This document shows, piece after piece, positions 3,235 to 63,903 of a stretch of 64,000 bases of DNA (within the stretch, counting starts at the first letter, position 1; each line of letters begins with the position of its first letter). Below the pieces are notes generated by a model. That model was not told the origin of the DNA, did not search any database, and worked only from the letters and a program-made list of their open reading frames with translations. Origin of the DNA: an uncultured bacterium (GTDB lineage Bacteria > Patescibacteriota > Minisyncoccia > Phycocordibacterales > PALSA-1337); contig CAIMDG010000002.1 of the NCBI GenBank assembly GCA_903839725.1, forward strand, positions 1,078-65,077, read 5' to 3'. A program made the position numbers and the translations under genes.

Positions 3235-4617
3235 TCAATTCCCCGTTGTGGTAATATGCAACTTCCAGCTCTCCAAATTACCTTCAGGACCACCACTGGC
3301 CCAGTCTCTAATCCATAAAAACCATATTCCGTTCGGTGATTTTCCATTAAATATTGATAGGTCATCTACAGGATGATATGTACCCGTAACAGGACTTATC
3401 AGTGGTGAATTTTGAATATTTACTTGGGCTGTATCCGCAAGTGTAACATCAAAACCTGCAATGTTATCGAGCATTTTCAAAACATCTCCATGATCTACAC
3501 CAAACAATCGCTGTCTAAGTGATGCAGGATAAGACCATGCCCCGAATATCACCTGTTGGACCTGATCTGGACTAAATAAAATCGCTTCTAAATCTCCATT
3601 AATACCTCCGTTAATTTTAACATCAACAGTCATATTTGATACAACACCAGATAGTCCGCTGACATTTAATTGATAAACATTGTACCTCCCATTAGGAATG
3701 ATTCCGCCACTAGAACTACTGAATACCATTGGTACCGGGTCTGCAACTGTCACCGTCACACCAAGTGTTTGTGTTTGTGCTGATCCGCCATTTCCAGTGA
3801 CTGTCGCAGTAACATTATATGTACCCGCCGCACTGTATGTATGAGTGAATGTGACTGGAGTTGTAATAGTATTTTGTGTACCTGTTGTTGTATCTCCCCA
3901 ATCGATAGAATACGTGAGCGAATCAGCATTTGGGTTTGAAACAGTTACTACCCATGTACCACCAGTAACAGTGGTAAGTGTACCTGGACCAGTGAAACTG
4001 CTTATTGTGGGTGCCGTAACAAACGTTTCTCCTGGATACCCATCACCAGAATATGATGAATAATTTGCATCACCGATCGGAATAGTTATAACTGTAGGAT
4101 TGTCTAGCGGATTAAGTGACTTGAGTTCACTTACATAATCAAAAGAAGCAGTTGGGGTGATTGCTACAGTAGTATCATTAGCTCCCGGAGTTACACCTGT
4201 CGAAGGTGCAGTTACGTAGGTGTATTCAAGACCACTTGTATTGATCATGTCGACAGGGATATGAGAGATGTATCCACCATCTACGAGAGGTTTGAGGACA
4301 CCTAGACCTAAATCAGGAACACCGTTTGCATTTGTAATACCTCTACATACAAATGAAGTTGTTCCGCTGATGATTTGAGGAGTACAACCTGCTACATTTT
4401 GCGCACCTGCTGGAACACCACCATGATCATTTGCGTATAAAGCCAACGCATTACGAACCTGAAGCGCATTTGAATTTCGCACAGAATCACGACCACTTGC
4501 TTGAGCAGCTCTAACTCCCACCAAAATCACTGAGGCAAGTGAGGCGATGATCGAGATGACGACCATGATTTCGATGAGGGTGAATCCTTTATTTTTGTAA
4601 TCTATAGCATGAATCAT
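3235..4617 (-). CDS. Type IV pilin-like protein with PKD-like repeat and C-terminal proprotein-convertase P-domain-like region
   Basis: N-terminal prepilin cleavage/methylation motif KGFTLIEIMVVISIIASLA. YSIDWGDTTTG PKD-like signature. C-terminal ...GDLEAILFSPDQV...GIWFLWIRDW...NLESWKLHI resembles a P-domain. Confidence 0.8.
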   Translation of the reverse strand: MIHAIDYKNKGFTLIEIMVVISIIASLASVILVGVRAAQASGRDSVRNSNALQVRNALALYANDHGGVPAGAQNVAGCTPQIISGTTSFVCRGITNANGVPDLGLGVLKPLVDGGYISHIPVDMINTSGLEYTYVTAPSTGVTPGANDTTVAITPTASFDYVSELKSLNPLDNPTVITIPIGDANYSSYSGDGYPGETFVTAPTISSFTGPGTLTTVTGGTWVVTVSNPNADSLTYSIDWGDTTTGTQNTITTPVTFTHTYSAAGTYNVTATVTGNGGSAQTQTLGVTVTVADPVPMVFSSSSGGIIPNGRYNVYQLNVSGLSGVVSNMTVDVKINGGINGDLEAILFSPDQVQQVIFGAWSYPASLRQRLFGVDHGDVLKMLDNIAGFDVTLADTAQVNIQNSPLISPVTGTYHPVDDLSIFNGKSPNGIWFLWIRDWASGGPEGNLESWKLHITTTGN

Positions 4618-4655
4618 ATGGTTTTATATATAAACCCGTACAACAAATGTGTTTC

Positions 4656-6170
4656 TTAACGTACACATCGAGCATATCTCAAATTATATTTATCATATGT
4701 TTCTATTTGTGGTGAACAACTAGTGGTTGAGAGCATCGGTACTCCATTTGCCCCCATAGACCACGATTTAGAACATGCCCATGCAAAACCACTTCTTCCT
4801 GAAAATTCTTCACTCGTCCAATACGGTGCAGTTTGTGTTGCTGATAACATTTTTGGTTGTACCAATGAGCCATCTTGCAGACCAGTCTGAAGCTCAGCTC
4901 GTGTAGGTAAATGCCATCCCGTCGTACCTCCACTACTTACACCAAAATTTGGGTCCGAACAAGTGCTTAAAGCATAATTCCATGAAGCAGAATTATACTG
5001 ACTAAAATCATATATAGACCACTTCGGTGCAAAGTACGCAACAACTGTTCGTGGAACACTCATGTCAACAACACACGTAGGATTGGTACCGGAAGAAGCA
5101 CAGTCACCTGCCCATCCATCAAAGAGACTAGCGTATGATGTTGATGCTGTAAGAGTAACTGATCCTGAGATTGTCGCCGAACAAGGATACTTGGATCCAA
5201 AAGAACCACTATTTTGACAATTGATACCACCGACCGAACTCGTAATAGTTCCGCCACCACCAAGTGATGAATAAGCTCCAGGACCTGGGAAACTAGGTAA
5301 ACCTGTCGTACTCACAGTAAGTAATTGTGTAACCGGCGCCGTCACAACTGTCTGCGTTGAAGCTGAAATCTGAGAATTAGACCCTGTCAAAGTCACGACA
5401 ATAGTGTAAGTACCCGCAGCTGCATATGCATGATAGGCATCAAACTTTGTACTTGATGATATAAGAAGATCACTTGTTGAATCTCCCCAATCATACGAAT
5501 ATGTCAGTGTAATCCCTGCTGGATTACGAACACTTGCAGTCCATGTTCCAGAAACACCAGACAAGATGGTAGAAGGTCCAGTAAAACCAGTGATTCCTGG
5601 TTGGATAACAATATTCGCAATTGGATATCCTCCATTTGGATACAATGCGGTGTTTTCTTCACCAATATATGTTGGAACAATCACAGGATCAGTAACCGGA
5701 TCAGCAGACTTGAACTCACTAACATAGTTGAATTCAGCTGTTGGTGTGATTGCTACAGTTGTACCGTTAGCTCCTGGGGTTACACCTGTTGTTGGTGCAG
5801 TTACGTAGGTATATTCAAGGCCATTGGTATTGATCATGTCGACAGGAATATGAGAGATGTATCCACCATCTACGAGAGGTTTGAGAACACCTGATTCCAA
5901 ATCACCTTTACATACATATGAAGTTGTTCCACCGATAGTCTGAGCATTACAACCTGCTACACCAGCACCTGATGGTACACCGCCATGGTCTGTTGCATAC
6001 AAAGCGAGTGCATTACGTACTTGCAAAGCACTTGATTGACGTGCAGAATCACGACCACTTGCTTGAGCAGCTCTGACTCCCACCAAAATCACTGAGGCAA
6101 GTGAGGCAATAATCGAGATAACAACCATAATTTCGATGAGGGTGAATCCGGTACGTAATGTGTGCTTCAT
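4656..6170 (-). CDS. Type IV pilin-like protein paralog with PKD-like repeat and C-terminal DUF1566/Lcl-like domain
   Basis: N-terminus TGFTLIEIMVVISIIASLASVILVGVRAAQASGRD is nearly identical to the neighbouring gene for about 165 aa. YSYDWGDSTS PKD-like. C-terminal WHLPTRAELQTGLQDGS...YWTSEEF is DUF1566-like. Confidence 0.8.
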   Translation of the reverse strand: MKHTLRTGFTLIEIMVVISIIASLASVILVGVRAAQASGRDSARQSSALQVRNALALYATDHGGVPSGAGVAGCNAQTIGGTTSYVCKGDLESGVLKPLVDGGYISHIPVDMINTNGLEYTYVTAPTTGVTPGANGTTVAITPTAEFNYVSEFKSADPVTDPVIVPTYIGEENTALYPNGGYPIANIVIQPGITGFTGPSTILSGVSGTWTASVRNPAGITLTYSYDWGDSTSDLLISSSTKFDAYHAYAAAGTYTIVVTLTGSNSQISASTQTVVTAPVTQLLTVSTTGLPSFPGPGAYSSLGGGGTITSSVGGINCQNSGSFGSKYPCSATISGSVTLTASTSYASLFDGWAGDCASSGTNPTCVVDMSVPRTVVAYFAPKWSIYDFSQYNSASWNYALSTCSDPNFGVSSGGTTGWHLPTRAELQTGLQDGSLVQPKMLSATQTAPYWTSEEFSGRSGFAWACSKSWSMGANGVPMLSTTSCSPQIETYDKYNLRYARCVR

Positions 6171-6503: not shown

Positions 6504-7256
6504 TTATATTCCCGATGTAGGCAGATATACCTTCGTCCTCTTGATATTCAAAGCAAAAGCTCCAACTTTCAAGTCGGCACCAATTCTATGTACCAAAGAA
6601 CGCATATAGGTACCGCTCGAACATTTCACTCGAATAGTTATTCGTGGCCAAGACTCTCCTTTTTCGACAAGGGTAGACCTTGAAAATACCTCTTCCCACC
6701 TTCTTTTAATTTCTTCCTGACGGAAATCACCATGTACCAAAGCAATATTACTGAAAATACGTTGCTTCAATTCTAGACTTAAAATGTTTGAAGCTTTTCC
6801 GACTTGTACAATAGAATATATTTCAACTTCCTTTGTTGGCATTTCATCTGGCAACTCATTATTGCGAGCACGTTCGTGAAGTTGAATCCCATCAACCGTC
6901 TTCGATGAATACGCCGGATATTCTTGTAAAAATCGTCCAACATACTTTGAAAAATCTACAGTATTCAAATCATGTACCAATCTCTCATCTCGAACATCCG
7001 TAACTAGTCCCAATGCATCATATGTATCTGTAGAAATGCCACATACTATTTCAACTTCATATTCTTTGTCTAAACCAAGATATTTCTCTTTTTGTTTACA
7101 TTCCTCACCAATCAATATCAGTAATTCCCCTTCCGCCAAAGGATCGAGTCGACCAGCATATGTCATCGGAATACCTTCCAAATCAGGTCGTGTGGCACGA
7201 AAACGCTCCAATGCTTCAAGGGGTGTCTCACCGATGTTCTTGTAGATACTAACCAT
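6504..7256 (-). CDS. truB: tRNA pseudouridine(55) synthase TruB
   Basis: GRLDPLAEGELLILIGEECK ... GISTDTYDALG motifs of TruB. Start chosen at the internal ATG (MVSIYKNIGETPLEALERFR), not the longest ORF (7298), to avoid overlap with divergent hisS. Confidence 0.75.
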   Translation of the reverse strand: MVSIYKNIGETPLEALERFRATRPDLEGIPMTYAGRLDPLAEGELLILIGEECKQKEKYLGLDKEYEVEIVCGISTDTYDALGLVTDVRDERLVHDLNTVDFSKYVGRFLQEYPAYSSKTVDGIQLHERARNNELPDEMPTKEVEIYSIVQVGKASNILSLELKQRIFSNIALVHGDFRQEEIKRRWEEVFSRSTLVEKGESWPRITIRVKCSSGTYMRSLVHRIGADLKVGAFALNIKRTKVYLPTSGI

Positions 7257-26206: not shown

Positions 26207-26430
26207 GTTGTTGATAAAAATTATTAAACGGACATCGTTGCCATTGAATAGTAGTTTCGCAGAACGTAAAAGGCGCTCTCAGGGACGAGAACGTTAGAGA
26301 TGCACGTTACTGCAATTGAATATTCACTGGGTAGGATTAATGATAGACCTTTCTAATCCCTCGCTGTAAGGCAGAACACAATCTGCGAAGTTAGGAGAAC
26401 CCTATCATATAGGCAGAGAAAGTCAAGTAA

Positions 26431-26554
26431 ACAAGGCGGGAGGGGTGTGCATACTCATTTTCTGCACTAGTTTAGAGACATGTACATTACACCACGTACC
26501 TCGATGTTTACAAACTTGTGCAGAAAATGAGTATGCACACCCCTCCCGCCTTGT
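26431..26554. repeat. Palindromic element copy 2: 37-bp perfect inverted repeat around the conserved core in inverted orientation
   Basis: acaaggcgggaggggtgtgcatactcattttctgcac / gtgcagaaaatgagtatgcacacccctcccgccttgt are exact reverse complements. The core tagtttagagacatgtacattacaccacgtacctcgatgtttacaaactt is the reverse complement (about 90% identity) of the copy 1 and copy 3 core. Confidence 0.85.
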
Positions 26555-26665
26555 TTGAAATGACCTGCAATTAGGTCTGCTATTACCAATATATTGACAT
26601 CATACAATTAATATGATTATATTTCATCAAACAACCGAACATTACCAACAAGAAAGGCTACTACT

Positions 26666-27202: not shown

Positions 27203-27224
27203 ATTACCAACCTTTCGACAAGGC

Positions 27225-27941
27225 CTACCCTTGTCGTTTCTTCTGATCCCCATCAGCCCGAACCGCTGTTCGCCACTCCTCTATATCCTTGTGATTCCCT
27301 CCCAAAAGCACCTTCGGCACACGATATTTCTTCTTTTTATACTCAATTACTTCAGGACGTGTATACACATCAGGACTAGCCACACGTTCTTCTTCGAGTG
27401 ACTGAATATCACCCAATACTCCAGGAATACGGCGAGTGATCGTATCAATCATAATCATGGCGGGAAGTTCGCCGCCCGTAAGTACGTACGGACCAACTGA
27501 TATATCGATCATAGGAAATGCTTTTTTCACACGAGCATCGATGCCTTCATAGCGGCCACAAACAAAAACAATATCTGTATACACCTTGAATGAGTCAGCA
27601 ATCTCATTGGTAAACTGTTGACCTGATGGACTAAAGAAAATAATTTTGACTGACTTTTTCCCTTTGGCTGTTTTAATTTTATTCCCAACCGCTTTTTCGA
27701 TTGCCTTAATAATGGGAAGTGCTTCAATCACCATTCCTGGACCTCCTCCATATGGGCGATTGTCGACACGTCGATCTGCATAACTTTGTTCTTTGTTCTT
27801 TTTTGATGAAACCGTAAAGTCACGAGGATTGTAGTATTTGATAGCGATTGCGCCTTTTTCTTGGGCACGCTTAACAATAGAGGCATTGAGATATGACTCG
27901 AACGATTCCGGGAATAGGGTTATAAGGTGAAAGGTAATCAT
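27225..27941 (-). CDS. trmD: tRNA (guanine37-N1)-methyltransferase
   Basis: MITFHLITLFPESFESYL ... GGGPGMV ... VCGRYEGIDAR SPOUT/TrmD motifs. Confidence 0.9.
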   Translation of the reverse strand: MITFHLITLFPESFESYLNASIVKRAQEKGAIAIKYYNPRDFTVSSKKNKEQSYADRRVDNRPYGGGPGMVIEALPIIKAIEKAVGNKIKTAKGKKSVKIIFFSPSGQQFTNEIADSFKVYTDIVFVCGRYEGIDARVKKAFPMIDISVGPYVLTGGELPAMIMIDTITRRIPGVLGDIQSLEEERVASPDVYTRPEVIEYKKKKYRVPKVLLGGNHKDIEEWRTAVRADGDQKKRQG

Positions 27942-28913: not shown

Positions 28914-29273
28914 CTACGCAGCTGGTGTAGGAACAACTTCTGGAGCTGGAGCGGCAGCTGGCTTTGCAGCTTCTGGTGCAACTTCCTTCTTGATAGGAGT
29001 GTGCAATGGGAGAGCATTCAACTTCTTGCCTGTGATAACTTTGTTATGAACGAGGTAATTGTGAAGTGTAAGAGAAAGCTTTGCACCCTTTGACATCCAA
29101 TACTTGATTGCTTCTGTATCTATCTGCTCTGGCTTATTTTTAATACGAGTATCATACCAACCCAAATTCTTGAGATATTTTCCACTCTTTGGACCATTCT
29201 TGGAATCGGTTAATACAACACGGAATGTTGGTTCGTGTTTGCGGCCTGTTCTTTGTAAGCGGATCATTAACAT
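28914..29273 (-). CDS. rpsP: 30S ribosomal protein S16 with Ala/Pro-rich C-terminal extension
   Basis: MLMIRLQRTGRKHEPTFRVVLTD matches the S16 N-terminus. The longest ORF (to 29354) runs into the palindromic element, so the start is set at ATG 29273. Confidence 0.85.
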   Translation of the reverse strand: MLMIRLQRTGRKHEPTFRVVLTDSKNGPKSGKYLKNLGWYDTRIKNKPEQIDTEAIKYWMSKGAKLSLTLHNYLVHNKVITGKKLNALPLHTPIKKEVAPEAAKPAAAPAPEVVPTPAA

Positions 29274-29321
29274 ATGTGGGTGAAAGCTTATCAGAATCGA
29301 TAATAAAACGCAAGATGTAGA

Positions 29322-29437
29322 GGCACACAGGGTACATGCACTCATTTCTCGCACAAGTTTGTAAACATTGTGGTACGCGGTGTAATGTACATGTCTCTAA
29401 ACTTGTGCGAGAAATGAGTGCATGTACCCTGTGTGCC
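29322..29437. repeat. Palindromic element copy 3: 38-bp perfect inverted repeat (29322-29359 / 29400-29437) around a 40-nt core; outer imperfect inverted repeat 29303-29456
   Basis: ggcacacagggtacatgcactcatttctcgcacaagtt / aacttgtgcgagaaatgagtgcatgtaccctgtgtgcc are exact reverse complements. The core tgtaaacattgtggtacgcggtgtaatgtacatgtctcta differs from copy 1 at one base. Confidence 0.85.
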
Positions 29438-29481
29438 CTGCTACTTTGCGTTTTATATAGTTCTGATATACTTTCACCATT

Positions 29482-30171
29482 ATGAAAGTACTCATCGTAG
29501 AAGACGACGTTGCAACAGCAGAAATGGTACGCAATGGTTTGGCGTCGTATCTATATACGACTGACGTCTCATTCGACGGTGCTGATGGTTCATTCATGGC
29601 TCGTAGCTATGAATACGACGCTATTGTACTCGATCATTCCCTACCAAAGAAAAGTGGTCTCACTGTATGCAAAGATATTCGTGCGGCCGGCAAAACTACA
29701 CCGATTATTTTCTTATCAGGACTTGATGCAGTAGAAACAAAGATAGAAGCACTCGAACATGGTGCTGATGATTATATGACAAAACCGTTTTCTCTCGACG
29801 AACTTGATGCACGTCTCAAGGCTCTTGCGCGTCGTCCTATTCAAATCCAAGAACGTATTCTGCAAGTACATGACCTTACACTCGATACACAGACACATGT
29901 AGTCACACGTGGAGGAAAAACGATTCATATGACCAAAAAAGAATTTGGTTTACTTGAATATATTATGAAGCACAAAGGCATCGTACTCTCACGAACATCA
30001 ATTATTGAGCATGTATGGGCTGCCGAAAATGACCCATTCTCAAATACAGTTGAAGCTCATCTACGCAACCTTCGTAAGAAAATAAATTTTGGTAATAAGC
30101 CAGACCTCATACGCAATCTCCCTGGTAGAGGTTATATTATAGACACTCCTGAACATCTTGCGCGTCTATAA
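29482..30171 (+). CDS. OmpR-family two-component response regulator
   Basis: MKVLIVEDDVATAEM receiver N-terminus, conserved Asp in VLDHSLP, K in MTKPF. C-terminal winged-helix (LTKKEFGLLEYIMKHKG...PGRGY). Confidence 0.85.
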   Translation: MKVLIVEDDVATAEMVRNGLASYLYTTDVSFDGADGSFMARSYEYDAIVLDHSLPKKSGLTVCKDIRAAGKTTPIIFLSGLDAVETKIEALEHGADDYMTKPFSLDELDARLKALARRPIQIQERILQVHDLTLDTQTHVVTRGGKTIHMTKKEFGLLEYIMKHKGIVLSRTSIIEHVWAAENDPFSNTVEAHLRNLRKKINFGNKPDLIRNLPGRGYIIDTPEHLARL

Positions 30172-45390: not shown

Positions 45391-45422
45391 CAACAAAAAA
45401 CCACCCTCTCGAGTGGTTTTTT
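45391..45422. terminator. Hairpin terminator (sequence duplicated at 47512)
   Basis: caacaaaaaaccaccctctcgagtggtttttt. The identical 32-mer recurs at 47512-47543. Confidence 0.7.
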
Positions 45423-47511: not shown

Positions 47512-47545
47512 CAACAAAAAACCACCCTCTCGAGTGGTTTTTTGT
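47512..47545. terminator. Hairpin terminator (duplicate of 45391)
   Basis: caacaaaaaaccaccctctcgagtggttttttgt. Confidence 0.7.
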
Positions 47546-59306: not shown

Positions 59307-59428
59307 AGAACAGACGTAATATGCACGGTTTTTAAGACCCTTCGGAGCCACGAAGAGTGGCGAGAATGAGTGCGCGTTCAGCAGAACGCGACACGTGTCT
59401 TAAAAACCGTGCATATTACGTCTGTTCT
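59307..59428. repeat. 122-bp palindromic element with nested internal hairpins (candidate structured ncRNA)
   Basis: 32-bp perfect inverted repeat agaacagacgtaatatgcacggtttttaagac / gtcttaaaaaccgtgcatattacgtctgttct enclosing 58 nt with two sub-hairpins (cttcg-gagcca-cgaag and cgcgttc-agca-gaacgcg). Confidence 0.7.
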
Positions 59429-60822: not shown

Positions 60823-60874
60823 ATGTATATATTATAGCAACAAGGTCTACCCTTGTCGCTATAATTCTGTATCA

Positions 60875-63783: not shown

Positions 63784-63903
63784 GCGAAGCAGGAGGGTGT
63801 GTACTCATTTTTCTCTTATAGGTTAGAGGCCCTCACATCACTCCGCATACCACATTGTTTTTAACCTATGAGAGAAAAATGAGTACACACCCTCCTGCTT
63901 CGC
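63784..63903. repeat. Palindromic element copy 4: 42-bp inverted repeat (1 mismatch) with homologous arms but a different 36-nt core
   Basis: gcgaagcaggagggtgtgtactcatttttctcttataggtta / taacctatgagagaaaaatgagtacacaccctcctgcttcgc. Arms share the GGGTGTG.ACTCATTTTC motif with copies 1-3. Core gaggccctcacatcactccgcataccacattgtttt. Confidence 0.8.

Follow-up and report, generated by a model that had tools for sequence, protein, structure and literature searches.

What kind of element fills the spacer between the divergent genes for ribosomal protein S16 (rpsP) and an OmpR-family response regulator (RR) in an uncultured Patescibacteriota bacterium, and from where did its successive layers arise? 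The locus lies on contig CAIMDG010000002.1 (assembly GCA_903839725.1; lineage Minisyncoccia, Phycocordibacterales, PALSA-1337), of which a 64 kb stretch, positions 1,078 to 65,077 and here called the window, was analysed; coordinates are window positions unless a related contig is named by its L number. The spacer is occupied by copy 3 of four palindromes in the window that share a conserved core. An earlier note on this DNA had described copy 3 as a layered palindrome resembling foldback elements, overlapping both promoters or leaders, and had raised the possibility of cleavage by RNase III. Our comparison with related genomes points to a different explanation. We propose, with a probability of about 0.6, that copy 3 is a DNA-level palindrome of two differently derived components, a dispersed palindromic core and locus-specific outer layers carrying the two divergent predicted promoters, and that it was built by template switching or an equivalent conversion within the palindrome.

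The palindrome in the rpsP/RR spacer

The repeat search identified copy 3 as an inverted repeat with 66-nt arms (29303-29368 and 29391-29456), which are 85% complementary and separated by a 22-nt gap, and a third layer further out (29279-29296 and 29461-29478; 18 nt, 89% complementary). The whole palindrome extends over 200 nt (29279-29478) and takes up nearly the entire spacer. The outer imperfect inverted repeat, a structure of more than 150 nt, the filling of the divergent spacer and the 26 nt between the element and the RR start codon (ATG 29482), all described in the earlier note, are therefore confirmed. The perfect inner arms also exist, as the note had it, but with a length of 39 and not 38 bp (29322-29360 and 29399-29437; 39/39 Watson-Crick pairs), and the distance from the element to rpsP is 29-35 nt instead of 49 nt, depending on whether the minus-strand gene starts at ATG 29273 (MLMIRL...) or ATG 29267 (MIRL...). 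Public gene calls for rpsP are 117 and 119 aa long, with the Pfam domain Ribosomal_S16, and the 117-aa call starts at 29267. The RR gene (29482-30171, plus strand) encodes the Pfam domains Response_reg and Trans_reg_C. Between the core arms lies the conserved central module (29361-29398), comprising an internal loop of GTAA against CTCT, a 4-bp mini-stem (ACAT/ATGT) and a 22-nt loop, TGTGGTACGCGGTGTAATGTAC.

The strength of this structure is far beyond that of shuffled sequence. The 208-nt spacer folds as RNA at -124 kcal/mol, compared to -50.5 +/- 4.6 in shuffles (z = -16.2), and as DNA at -75.4 kcal/mol (z = -17.1). The flanks outside the copy 3 core, taken on their own as an inverted repeat, score 23-24 as opposed to 8.0 +/- 1.5 in shuffles (0/2000), and the same flank score at five other divergent gene pairs of the window is 7-10. 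A similar outer layer, also claimed previously, is present at copy 1 (1001-1015 and 1178-1193), with a score of 15 against 7.0 +/- 1.5 and p of about 0.0005. We regard a 49-aa open reading frame (ORF) at 29336-29485 as a by-product of the palindrome, after no more than spot checks of whether other copies conserve it.

The outer layers as predicted divergent promoters

The outer layers of copy 3 are two divergent predicted promoters, specific to this locus and separate from the repeat unit. On the minus strand, the outermost left layer (29279-29296) holds the predicted extended -10 box of rpsP, TGATAAGCT (29293-29285), along with the first transcribed bases, and the second left layer (29303-29319) holds the predicted -35 box TTGCGT (29313-29308), located 17 nt upstream of the -10 box. 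On the plus strand, the second right layer (29442-29456) repeats the rpsP -35 region in inverted form and contains the predicted RR -35 box TTGCGT (29446-29451); the outermost right layer (29461-29478) contains the predicted RR extended -10 box, TGATATACT (29464-29472), followed by 9 nt to the start codon. In promoter prediction, which the earlier note had called for, a generic sigma-70 scan flagged neither promoter, because the -35 boxes are weak and the RR spacer is only 15 nt, and both were assigned by their conservation in orthologues. The rpsP/RR pair is syntenic in five relatives (L089, L092, L094, L095, L096), and in all five the rpsP strand reads TTGCGT or TTGCAT, 17 nt, TGnTAnnnT, 11 nt and ATG, the TTGCGT/TTGCAT-17-TAnnnT arrangement of the window being found also in L092, L094 and L095. 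On the RR side, the five orthologues carry TGnTAnnnT 7-9 nt ahead of the ATG.

Promoter boxes so close to the start codon are not peculiar to this locus. A TAnnnT hexamer precedes the start codon by 6-9 nt, most commonly by 6 nt, in 15 of the 26 first genes examined in the window, and near-leaderless predicted promoters therefore appear to be the local norm, which suggests that the mRNAs of the window are mostly leaderless or near-leaderless. Extended -10 or TAnnnT boxes without a Shine-Dalgarno sequence occur, for instance, upstream of 12606(-), 41388(+), 48856(+), 53172(+), 60822(-), 63753(-) and 63924(+); a leader with a GAAAGG-type ribosome-binding site is found in a small number of genes (e.g. 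26666) instead. The two predicted promoters at copy 3 face outward, with only 9-11 nt between each extended -10 box and its ATG. The 116-nt core (29322-29437) would therefore be upstream of both predicted starts, occupying roughly -45 to -160 relative to either gene, and transcription from their promoters probably does not include it. Inspection of the core revealed no internal promoter of the TGnTAnnnT type. The claim that the element must overlap both promoters or leaders thus holds for the outer layers, which coincide with the promoters, and fails for the core, which lies outside the predicted leaders.

Relatives that lack the palindrome allow the origin of the outer layers to be traced. 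The palindrome is absent from L095 and L096 (RR 69% identical), where the spacer is 59 nt, and from L094 (RR 72% identical), where it is 124 nt. These spacers contain a single copy of AAATGCAAG/AAACGCAAG, and AAA(C/T)GCAAG is found on the rpsP side only. In the window, TAAAACGCAA occurs at 29304 and, reverse-complemented, at 29446 and nowhere else, and it is missing from the RR side of the empty-site relatives L094 and L095. In promoter similarity, the window RR promoter scores 20 against the window rpsP promoter, compared to 4 against the RR promoter of L094 and 3 against that of L095; within L094 and within L095, the RR and rpsP promoters score 2-4 against each other. As the empty-site relatives have the rpsP copy only, along with an unrelated RR promoter, the RR promoter of copy 3 has the look of the rpsP promoter copied in inverted form, or of a sequence converted toward it. 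The outer-layer words (TAAAACGCAAG..., TTCTGATAnnCTTTCACC) occur nowhere else in the window and are homologous to the native rpsP promoter of palindrome-free relatives, which argues against a layered foldback element as the source of the outer repeats. Two further relatives do carry a palindrome in this slot: L089 has the same family core as the window, and L092 (RR 80% identical) has an unrelated palindrome with perfect 40-bp arms and a 36-nt loop (L092 9840-9955).

A dispersed family of palindromic cores

We identify the core of copy 3 as a member of a dispersed palindrome family present in a few related Paceibacteria-like genomes of the candidate phyla radiation. The window holds four copies, with cores at 1036-1153, 26429-26556 and 29322-29437 and a more divergent one at 63784-63903, and a covariance model built from eight copies and run on the window and its relatives detected no fifth copy in the window. 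Outside the window, the model recovered copies in L008, L087, L088 (two), L089, L097, L100 and L101. L008 is the only contig with a family copy among the GTDB species representatives, L087 and L088 are the only ones that a family-specific pattern search retrieved from JGI metagenome contigs, and L089, L097, L100 and L101 are sister-species contigs reached via protein homologues; viral contigs, a phage collection and a plasmid collection gave zero family matches. The pattern TACTCATTTT-N50-80-AAAATGAGTA, when run over the genome collection, returned 81 stretches, nearly all of them chance matches in unrelated phyla, with L008 as the only true relative. The nearest named homologues of the flanking proteins belong to metagenome-assembled genomes of Paceibacterota, Taylorbacteria and Parcubacteria. 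A description of this family was not found in the literature searched for it. To the right of its family copy, L008 (2440-2520) carries a good promoter, TTGCCA-17-TGcTAAATT, followed by GGGGTGTCGGGTTGGAGAC... and no ORF, which may be a structured RNA gene.

In each copy, long arms flank a conserved central module of about 44 nt. The centre reads TTTGTAAACAT, a 22-nt loop (GGTACGCGGTGTAATGTAC) and ATGTCTCTAAA, includes the fixed 4-nt mismatch of GTAA vs CTCT, is 90-98% identical among copies and occurs in both orientations. In the stem, conserved boxes (AAGTTT, ACTCATTTT) are interspersed with variable segments, and in alignments of 7-8 copies conservation peaks at the centre and falls toward the outer ends. 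Two centre variants occur in a related species, here called species B, one in three copies and the other in two, which suggests exchange between copies or recent seeding. Wherever the context of a copy could be determined, at least one gene starts just downstream of it, and the majority of these copies lie between divergent genes, the contexts being the rpoB region and an ORF, rpsP/RR, fba/pfkB, tgt/LDcluster4, an ORF and rpsB, typA, and the vicinity of rpsA.

The searches for known RNA families and mobility functions were negative. At gathering score, Rfam gave no match to the core, the sole passing match in the window being a tRNA-Ser; at a relaxed E-value, the core matched only generic microRNA-precursor hairpins, at 21-52 bits compared to gathering scores of 76-101. 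No Pfam domain of a transposase, integrase or HUH protein was found in the sizeable ORFs of the 64-kb window, nor a recombinase, nor a RAYT gene, and the arms are variable and are not conserved REP units. The region 29200-29560 contains no tandem sub-repeats or direct-repeat families. When the flanks of copies 1, 2 and 4, L008, L087 and the second L088 copy (L088b) were inspected, no direct repeat recurred consistently, although a 2-3 bp target duplication could escape detection because the ends of the element are not sharply defined. A reading of the loop as a dif/Xer-like site was dropped, as its likeness to Escherichia coli dif is weak and no recombinase is nearby.

The rpsP/RR palindrome also affects genome assembly. 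The assemblies L001 and L003 represent the same strain and are identical to the window, and hence provide no polymorphism. Short-read assemblies made independently from this species and relatives, namely L002, L004 and L005 (which start at window 29408), L091 and L093, break inside the rpsP/RR palindrome, and such elements are therefore expected to be under-represented in metagenome-assembled genomes.

Co-variation of the arms and inversion of the centre

Over nine copies, the long stem comprises 377 pairs, of which 371 are Watson-Crick, 3 are G·T and 3 are other mismatches, with an arm identity between copies of only about 65-78% in well-anchored comparisons. Pairs have changed on both sides in 28 of 49 cases, compared to 14.6 +/- 2.1 in shuffles (0/500) and at most 13 in slid controls, and one-sided arm changes across copies are nearly absent; pairs of orthologous copies show 16 mirrored arm changes vs 7 changes in one arm. 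An RNA helix under selection should carry G·U more often than other mismatches, and the equal counts of 3 and 3 therefore favour a reading at the level of DNA.

The centre gives a second line of evidence. In L089 (species B; RR 85% identical), the flanks of the rpsP/RR copy are near-identical to those of the window and the central module is the reverse complement of that of the window. The same change is seen between two strains of species B, L100 and L101, which differ at 1570 positions in 20.9 kb: their tgt/LDcluster4 copies differ by an inverted centre and a mirrored T>C/A>G arm change, and the copy in L100 has three further changes in one arm that are not yet mirrored. With the centre inverted at orthologous sites, a fixed outside promoter would transcribe the complement, which a strand-specific RNA would not be expected to tolerate. 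Near-wobble-free stems and a centre that flips between orthologues and strains speak for a DNA-level palindrome and against an RNase III substrate. Taken as a whole, copy 3 behaves as a structure at the level of DNA, and neither as an RNA leader nor as a classic transposon.

Palindromes and repeats at other sites

The remaining window copies show that the outer layers differ from locus to locus. Copy 1 (1001-1193) combines the core at 1036-1153 with a locus-specific outer inverted repeat, the right arm of which is the -10 region of the typA promoter. This promoter, TTGACA-17-TAATCT, is conserved in four species, and its inverted copy TAAGATTACATTA, across the palindrome, is found only in the window and L097, both of which have a long palindrome there. 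The palindrome at the L097 typA slot (L097 7473-7589) is a different one, with 32-bp arms and a 53-nt loop; L098 has just a 12-bp hairpin exactly at the copy 1 position, and L099 has nothing. The unrelated palindromes of L092 and L097 occupy the slots of window copies 3 and 1, at the typA slot to within about 3 nt, and their outer flanks are the same. By blastn over the sequences examined, neither has a further copy, and the 11-mers shared by the L097 and L092 palindromes and by the one at 59307-59428 (below) gave no sign of a local origin, being no commoner than chance (about 8.6 expected per query).

Copy 2 (26429-26556), the centre of which is in the opposite orientation, is bordered by the rpoB upstream region and a 162-aa ORF; neither species B nor L092 has a counterpart. 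The outermost stem of copy 2, AAACAAGG/CCTTGTTT, is the stem of a recurrent small hairpin motif, ACAAGG-N5-CCTTGT (loop usually nnTAC), which occurs three times in the window (6667-6683, 27218-27234 and 60840-60856) vs 0.07 expected, as well as at L089 7895, L097 16253 and L100 13786, near gene ends or just upstream of promoters. The core of copy 2 may therefore sit in the loop of a small hairpin of the ACAAGG type. Immediately upstream of rpoB and next to copy 2, some 190 nt of non-coding sequence (26236-26428) are about 95% identical in the window, L089 and L092, well above the four-fold sites of neighbouring genes, and are absent from L095. This block had no Rfam match at E<=1 and folds unremarkably as a single sequence (z = -1.4 and -1.7); it may represent an rpoB leader or a so far undescribed RNA. 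Copy 4 (63784-63903), located between divergent fba and pfkB-like genes, belongs to a divergent subfamily with a 36-nt loop; in its orthologue in species B, the outer arms are orthologous with mirrored substitutions, and the inner arms and centre differ.

A palindrome unrelated to the family, at 59307-59428, has 32-bp perfect arms and a 58-nt centre, which folds as two small hairpins, and lies between convergent genes for RNase J and an SLT-domain protein. Its orthologue (L100 15207-15328) is identical at 54/58 positions of the centre and shows about ten arm changes, nearly all mirrored. It may represent a structured RNA, or else a further DNA palindrome of this type. Two adjacent paralogues at 3235-6170, encoding pilin-like surface proteins with an N-terminal methylation motif and PKD domains, share stretches of about 200 nt at 84-85% identity, and identical 32-nt terminator-like hairpins (CAACAAAAAACCACCCTCTCGAGTGGTTTTTT) at 45391-45422 and 47512-47543 sit in a cluster of paralogous genes for periplasmic binding proteins and TrmB-like regulators.

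Proposed mechanism and alternative explanations

The results allow us to propose how copy 3 was formed. Replication template switching between the arms, or an equivalent conversion within the palindrome, would homogenise the arms, flip the spacer and push the palindrome outward into its flanks, by which the RR side would gain the rpsP -35 region, TTGCGTTTTAT, and much of the -10/start region. Insertion of the core would have separated two promoters that in relatives overlap back-to-back within 59 nt, and the RR operon would have acquired a copy of a ribosomal-protein promoter. Template switching is taken as the process because its signature is complete when relatives are compared: arm homogenisation, spacer inversion and outward expansion into flanks that are single-copy at empty sites are seen together. 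According to published work, template switching between inverted-repeat arms makes the arms alike and turns spacers around (PMC8604942) and lengthens inverted repeats at promoters (PMC13100816), and imperfect inverted repeats are preferentially corrected in bacteria, as argued for proteobacteria (PMC5941160).

Several observations weigh against this reading. It is by its signature that template switching is recognised here, and we infer from sequence comparison the process as well as the promoter positions, which the sigma-70 scan missed, and the lack of transcription through the core. Template switching does not explain the spread of the conserved core to several loci, the unrelated palindromes in the same slot of sister species (rpsP/RR in L092, typA in L097) or the persistence of the uncorrected 4-nt internal-loop mismatch, and the recurrent hairpin motif that forms the outermost stem of copy 2 fits insertion into an existing hairpin better than expansion of the arms. 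Finally, copies 3 and 4 are still at orthologous sites in species B even though the four-fold sites of the two species are only 46-73% identical, and this retention, together with a centre far better conserved than the arms, implies selection or recognition in trans.

The last point leads to the alternative that best survives, which we regard as possible and hold tentatively: that the palindrome is a functional upstream DNA element, either a cruciform extruded under supercoiling between outward promoters or a site bound by a protein at its centre. It would act as an insulator, a supercoil sink or a regulatory site for housekeeping promoters, and is compatible with template switching as the origin of the layers, to which it adds a host function. 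The retention of orthologous copies fits such a role, as do the 90-98% conservation of the centre while the arms drift, the position just upstream of gene starts and mostly between divergent genes, and a centre that tolerates both orientations, as would be expected more of a target that is double-stranded or a cruciform than of a strand-specific RNA. The position is, however, weak evidence, because a compact genome leaves surviving insertions almost only slots upstream of promoters. Copy 2 has no counterpart in species B and L092, and L097 has a different palindrome at the copy 1 slot, both of which speak against this role.

Doubtful as a general explanation, though a serious candidate for part of the layering, is nested insertion, in which a mobile hairpin unit (the central 80-116 nt or so) enters the loop or centre of existing palindromes and the layers are older, locus-specific hairpins. 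Some insertion sequences do target REP hairpins. Copy 2, which can be written as AAACAAGG[core]CCTTGTTT, with a motif that recurs in the window and its relatives, speaks for it, and the unrelated palindromes in the same slots of sister species and the 12-bp hairpin of L098 exactly at the copy 1 site would also be accommodated. At copy 3, however, the empty rpsP/RR sites of L094, L095 and L096 are without a prior palindrome, their RR promoter being unrelated to the rpsP promoter, and the outer repeats occur only alongside a long palindrome. No integrase or transposase was found in the 64 kb, and inspection of the flanks gave no consistent target duplication.

Rather more speculative is the suggestion that the palindromes constitute an undescribed class of selected DNA-structure elements of candidate phyla radiation bacteria, in which an orientation-independent centre would be recognised by a host or element factor and a long extrudable stem, situated just upstream, would insulate or tune divergent, near-leaderless housekeeping promoters via supercoiling. 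Promoter copying would be a by-product, through which adjacent genes, in this case a two-component system, would gain promoters of ribosomal-protein genes.

A transcribed leader or small-RNA hairpin, that is, a long double-stranded RNA stem over the leaders which is processed by RNase III, as the earlier note had envisaged, is disfavoured and seems to us improbable. The very stable RNA fold, the plentiful compensatory changes and a weak, sub-threshold likeness to generic microRNA-precursor models would suit it, but G·T pairs are no commoner than other mismatches beside 371 Watson-Crick pairs, the centre is inverted between orthologues and strains with its sequence kept, the predicted extended -10 boxes fire away from the core, and neither an Rfam family at gathering score nor, by inspection, an internal TGnTAnnnT promoter was found. 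A classical transposable element of the miniature inverted-repeat class (MITE) or foldback-type transposon, with all nested terminal inverted repeats mobile, seems similarly improbable: the copies are dispersed, differ in presence and absence among relatives and resemble known bacterial MITEs in length (about 120-150 nt) and palindromic shape, but conservation is lowest at the outer ends and highest at the centre, opposite to the pattern of terminal repeats bound by a transposase, every locus has outer layers of its own, the arms have no direct sub-repeats, and there is no consistent target-site duplication by inspection, no transposase in the window and no phage or plasmid match.

Likeness to known systems

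By our comparison, copy 3 would be most akin to interspersed palindromes of bacteria that template switching has shaped, and its unusual traits are a centre that is conserved yet flips, arms that are perfect yet variable and a promoter duplicated in mirror image. With template-switched inverted repeats (PMC8604942, PMC13100816, PMC5941160) it shares identical arms, a spacer inverted between close relatives and extension into promoter DNA. The inverted repeats in published cases are for the most part short, with arms that as a rule fall well below the 39-53 bp found here, whereas copy 3 is a 200-nt structure, belongs to a dispersed family whose centre is conserved and seems to carry a whole bacterial promoter copied to its other side; the process behind it is inferred.

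Among interspersed repeats, REP/BIME, REPINs, ERIC and Correia/NEMIS elements are non-coding intergenic hairpins, and Correia elements can supply promoter boxes. Going by general descriptions of the REP, ERIC and Correia types, the present family is likewise non-coding, about 100-150 nt long, gene-adjacent and present in several copies with compensatory change. It differs in that its arms are long and perfect and that the centre is conserved in place of the termini; neither a RAYT or transposase gene in the window, nor a target duplication (TA or otherwise), nor any similarity in sequence was found. REPs typically occur in 3' regions, whereas the family copies lie upstream of promoters, and the host is a candidate phyla radiation bacterium. 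Invertons similarly have a segment between inverted repeats that is found in both orientations in close relatives; the flipped segment here is, however, only about 22-44 nt, has no recognisable promoter by inspection and is shorter than its arms, and a recombinase is absent from the window. Eukaryotic foldback (FB) transposons have long inverted arms and a short middle in common with copy 3, but their arms consist of tandem sub-repeats and are kilobase-sized, whereas copy 3 has no sub-repeats and its outer layers are host promoter sequence. The foldback likeness drawn in the earlier note is therefore not upheld.

Significance

If the proposed mechanism is correct, copy 3 would be a clean natural bacterial example of a palindrome that grows outward and duplicates a promoter in mirror image, a mode of promoter evolution documented so far mainly for short repeats in yeast. 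A signalling operon, that of a two-component system, would thereby have been rewired onto a promoter of the ribosomal-protein type. The locus further brings to light a family of palindromes in Paceibacteria, a group that has been little studied; the conservation of the family's centre across species so diverged at four-fold sites hints at a partner acting in trans. Since these palindromes break short-read assemblies right at promoters, they would be systematically under-represented in metagenome-assembled genomes.

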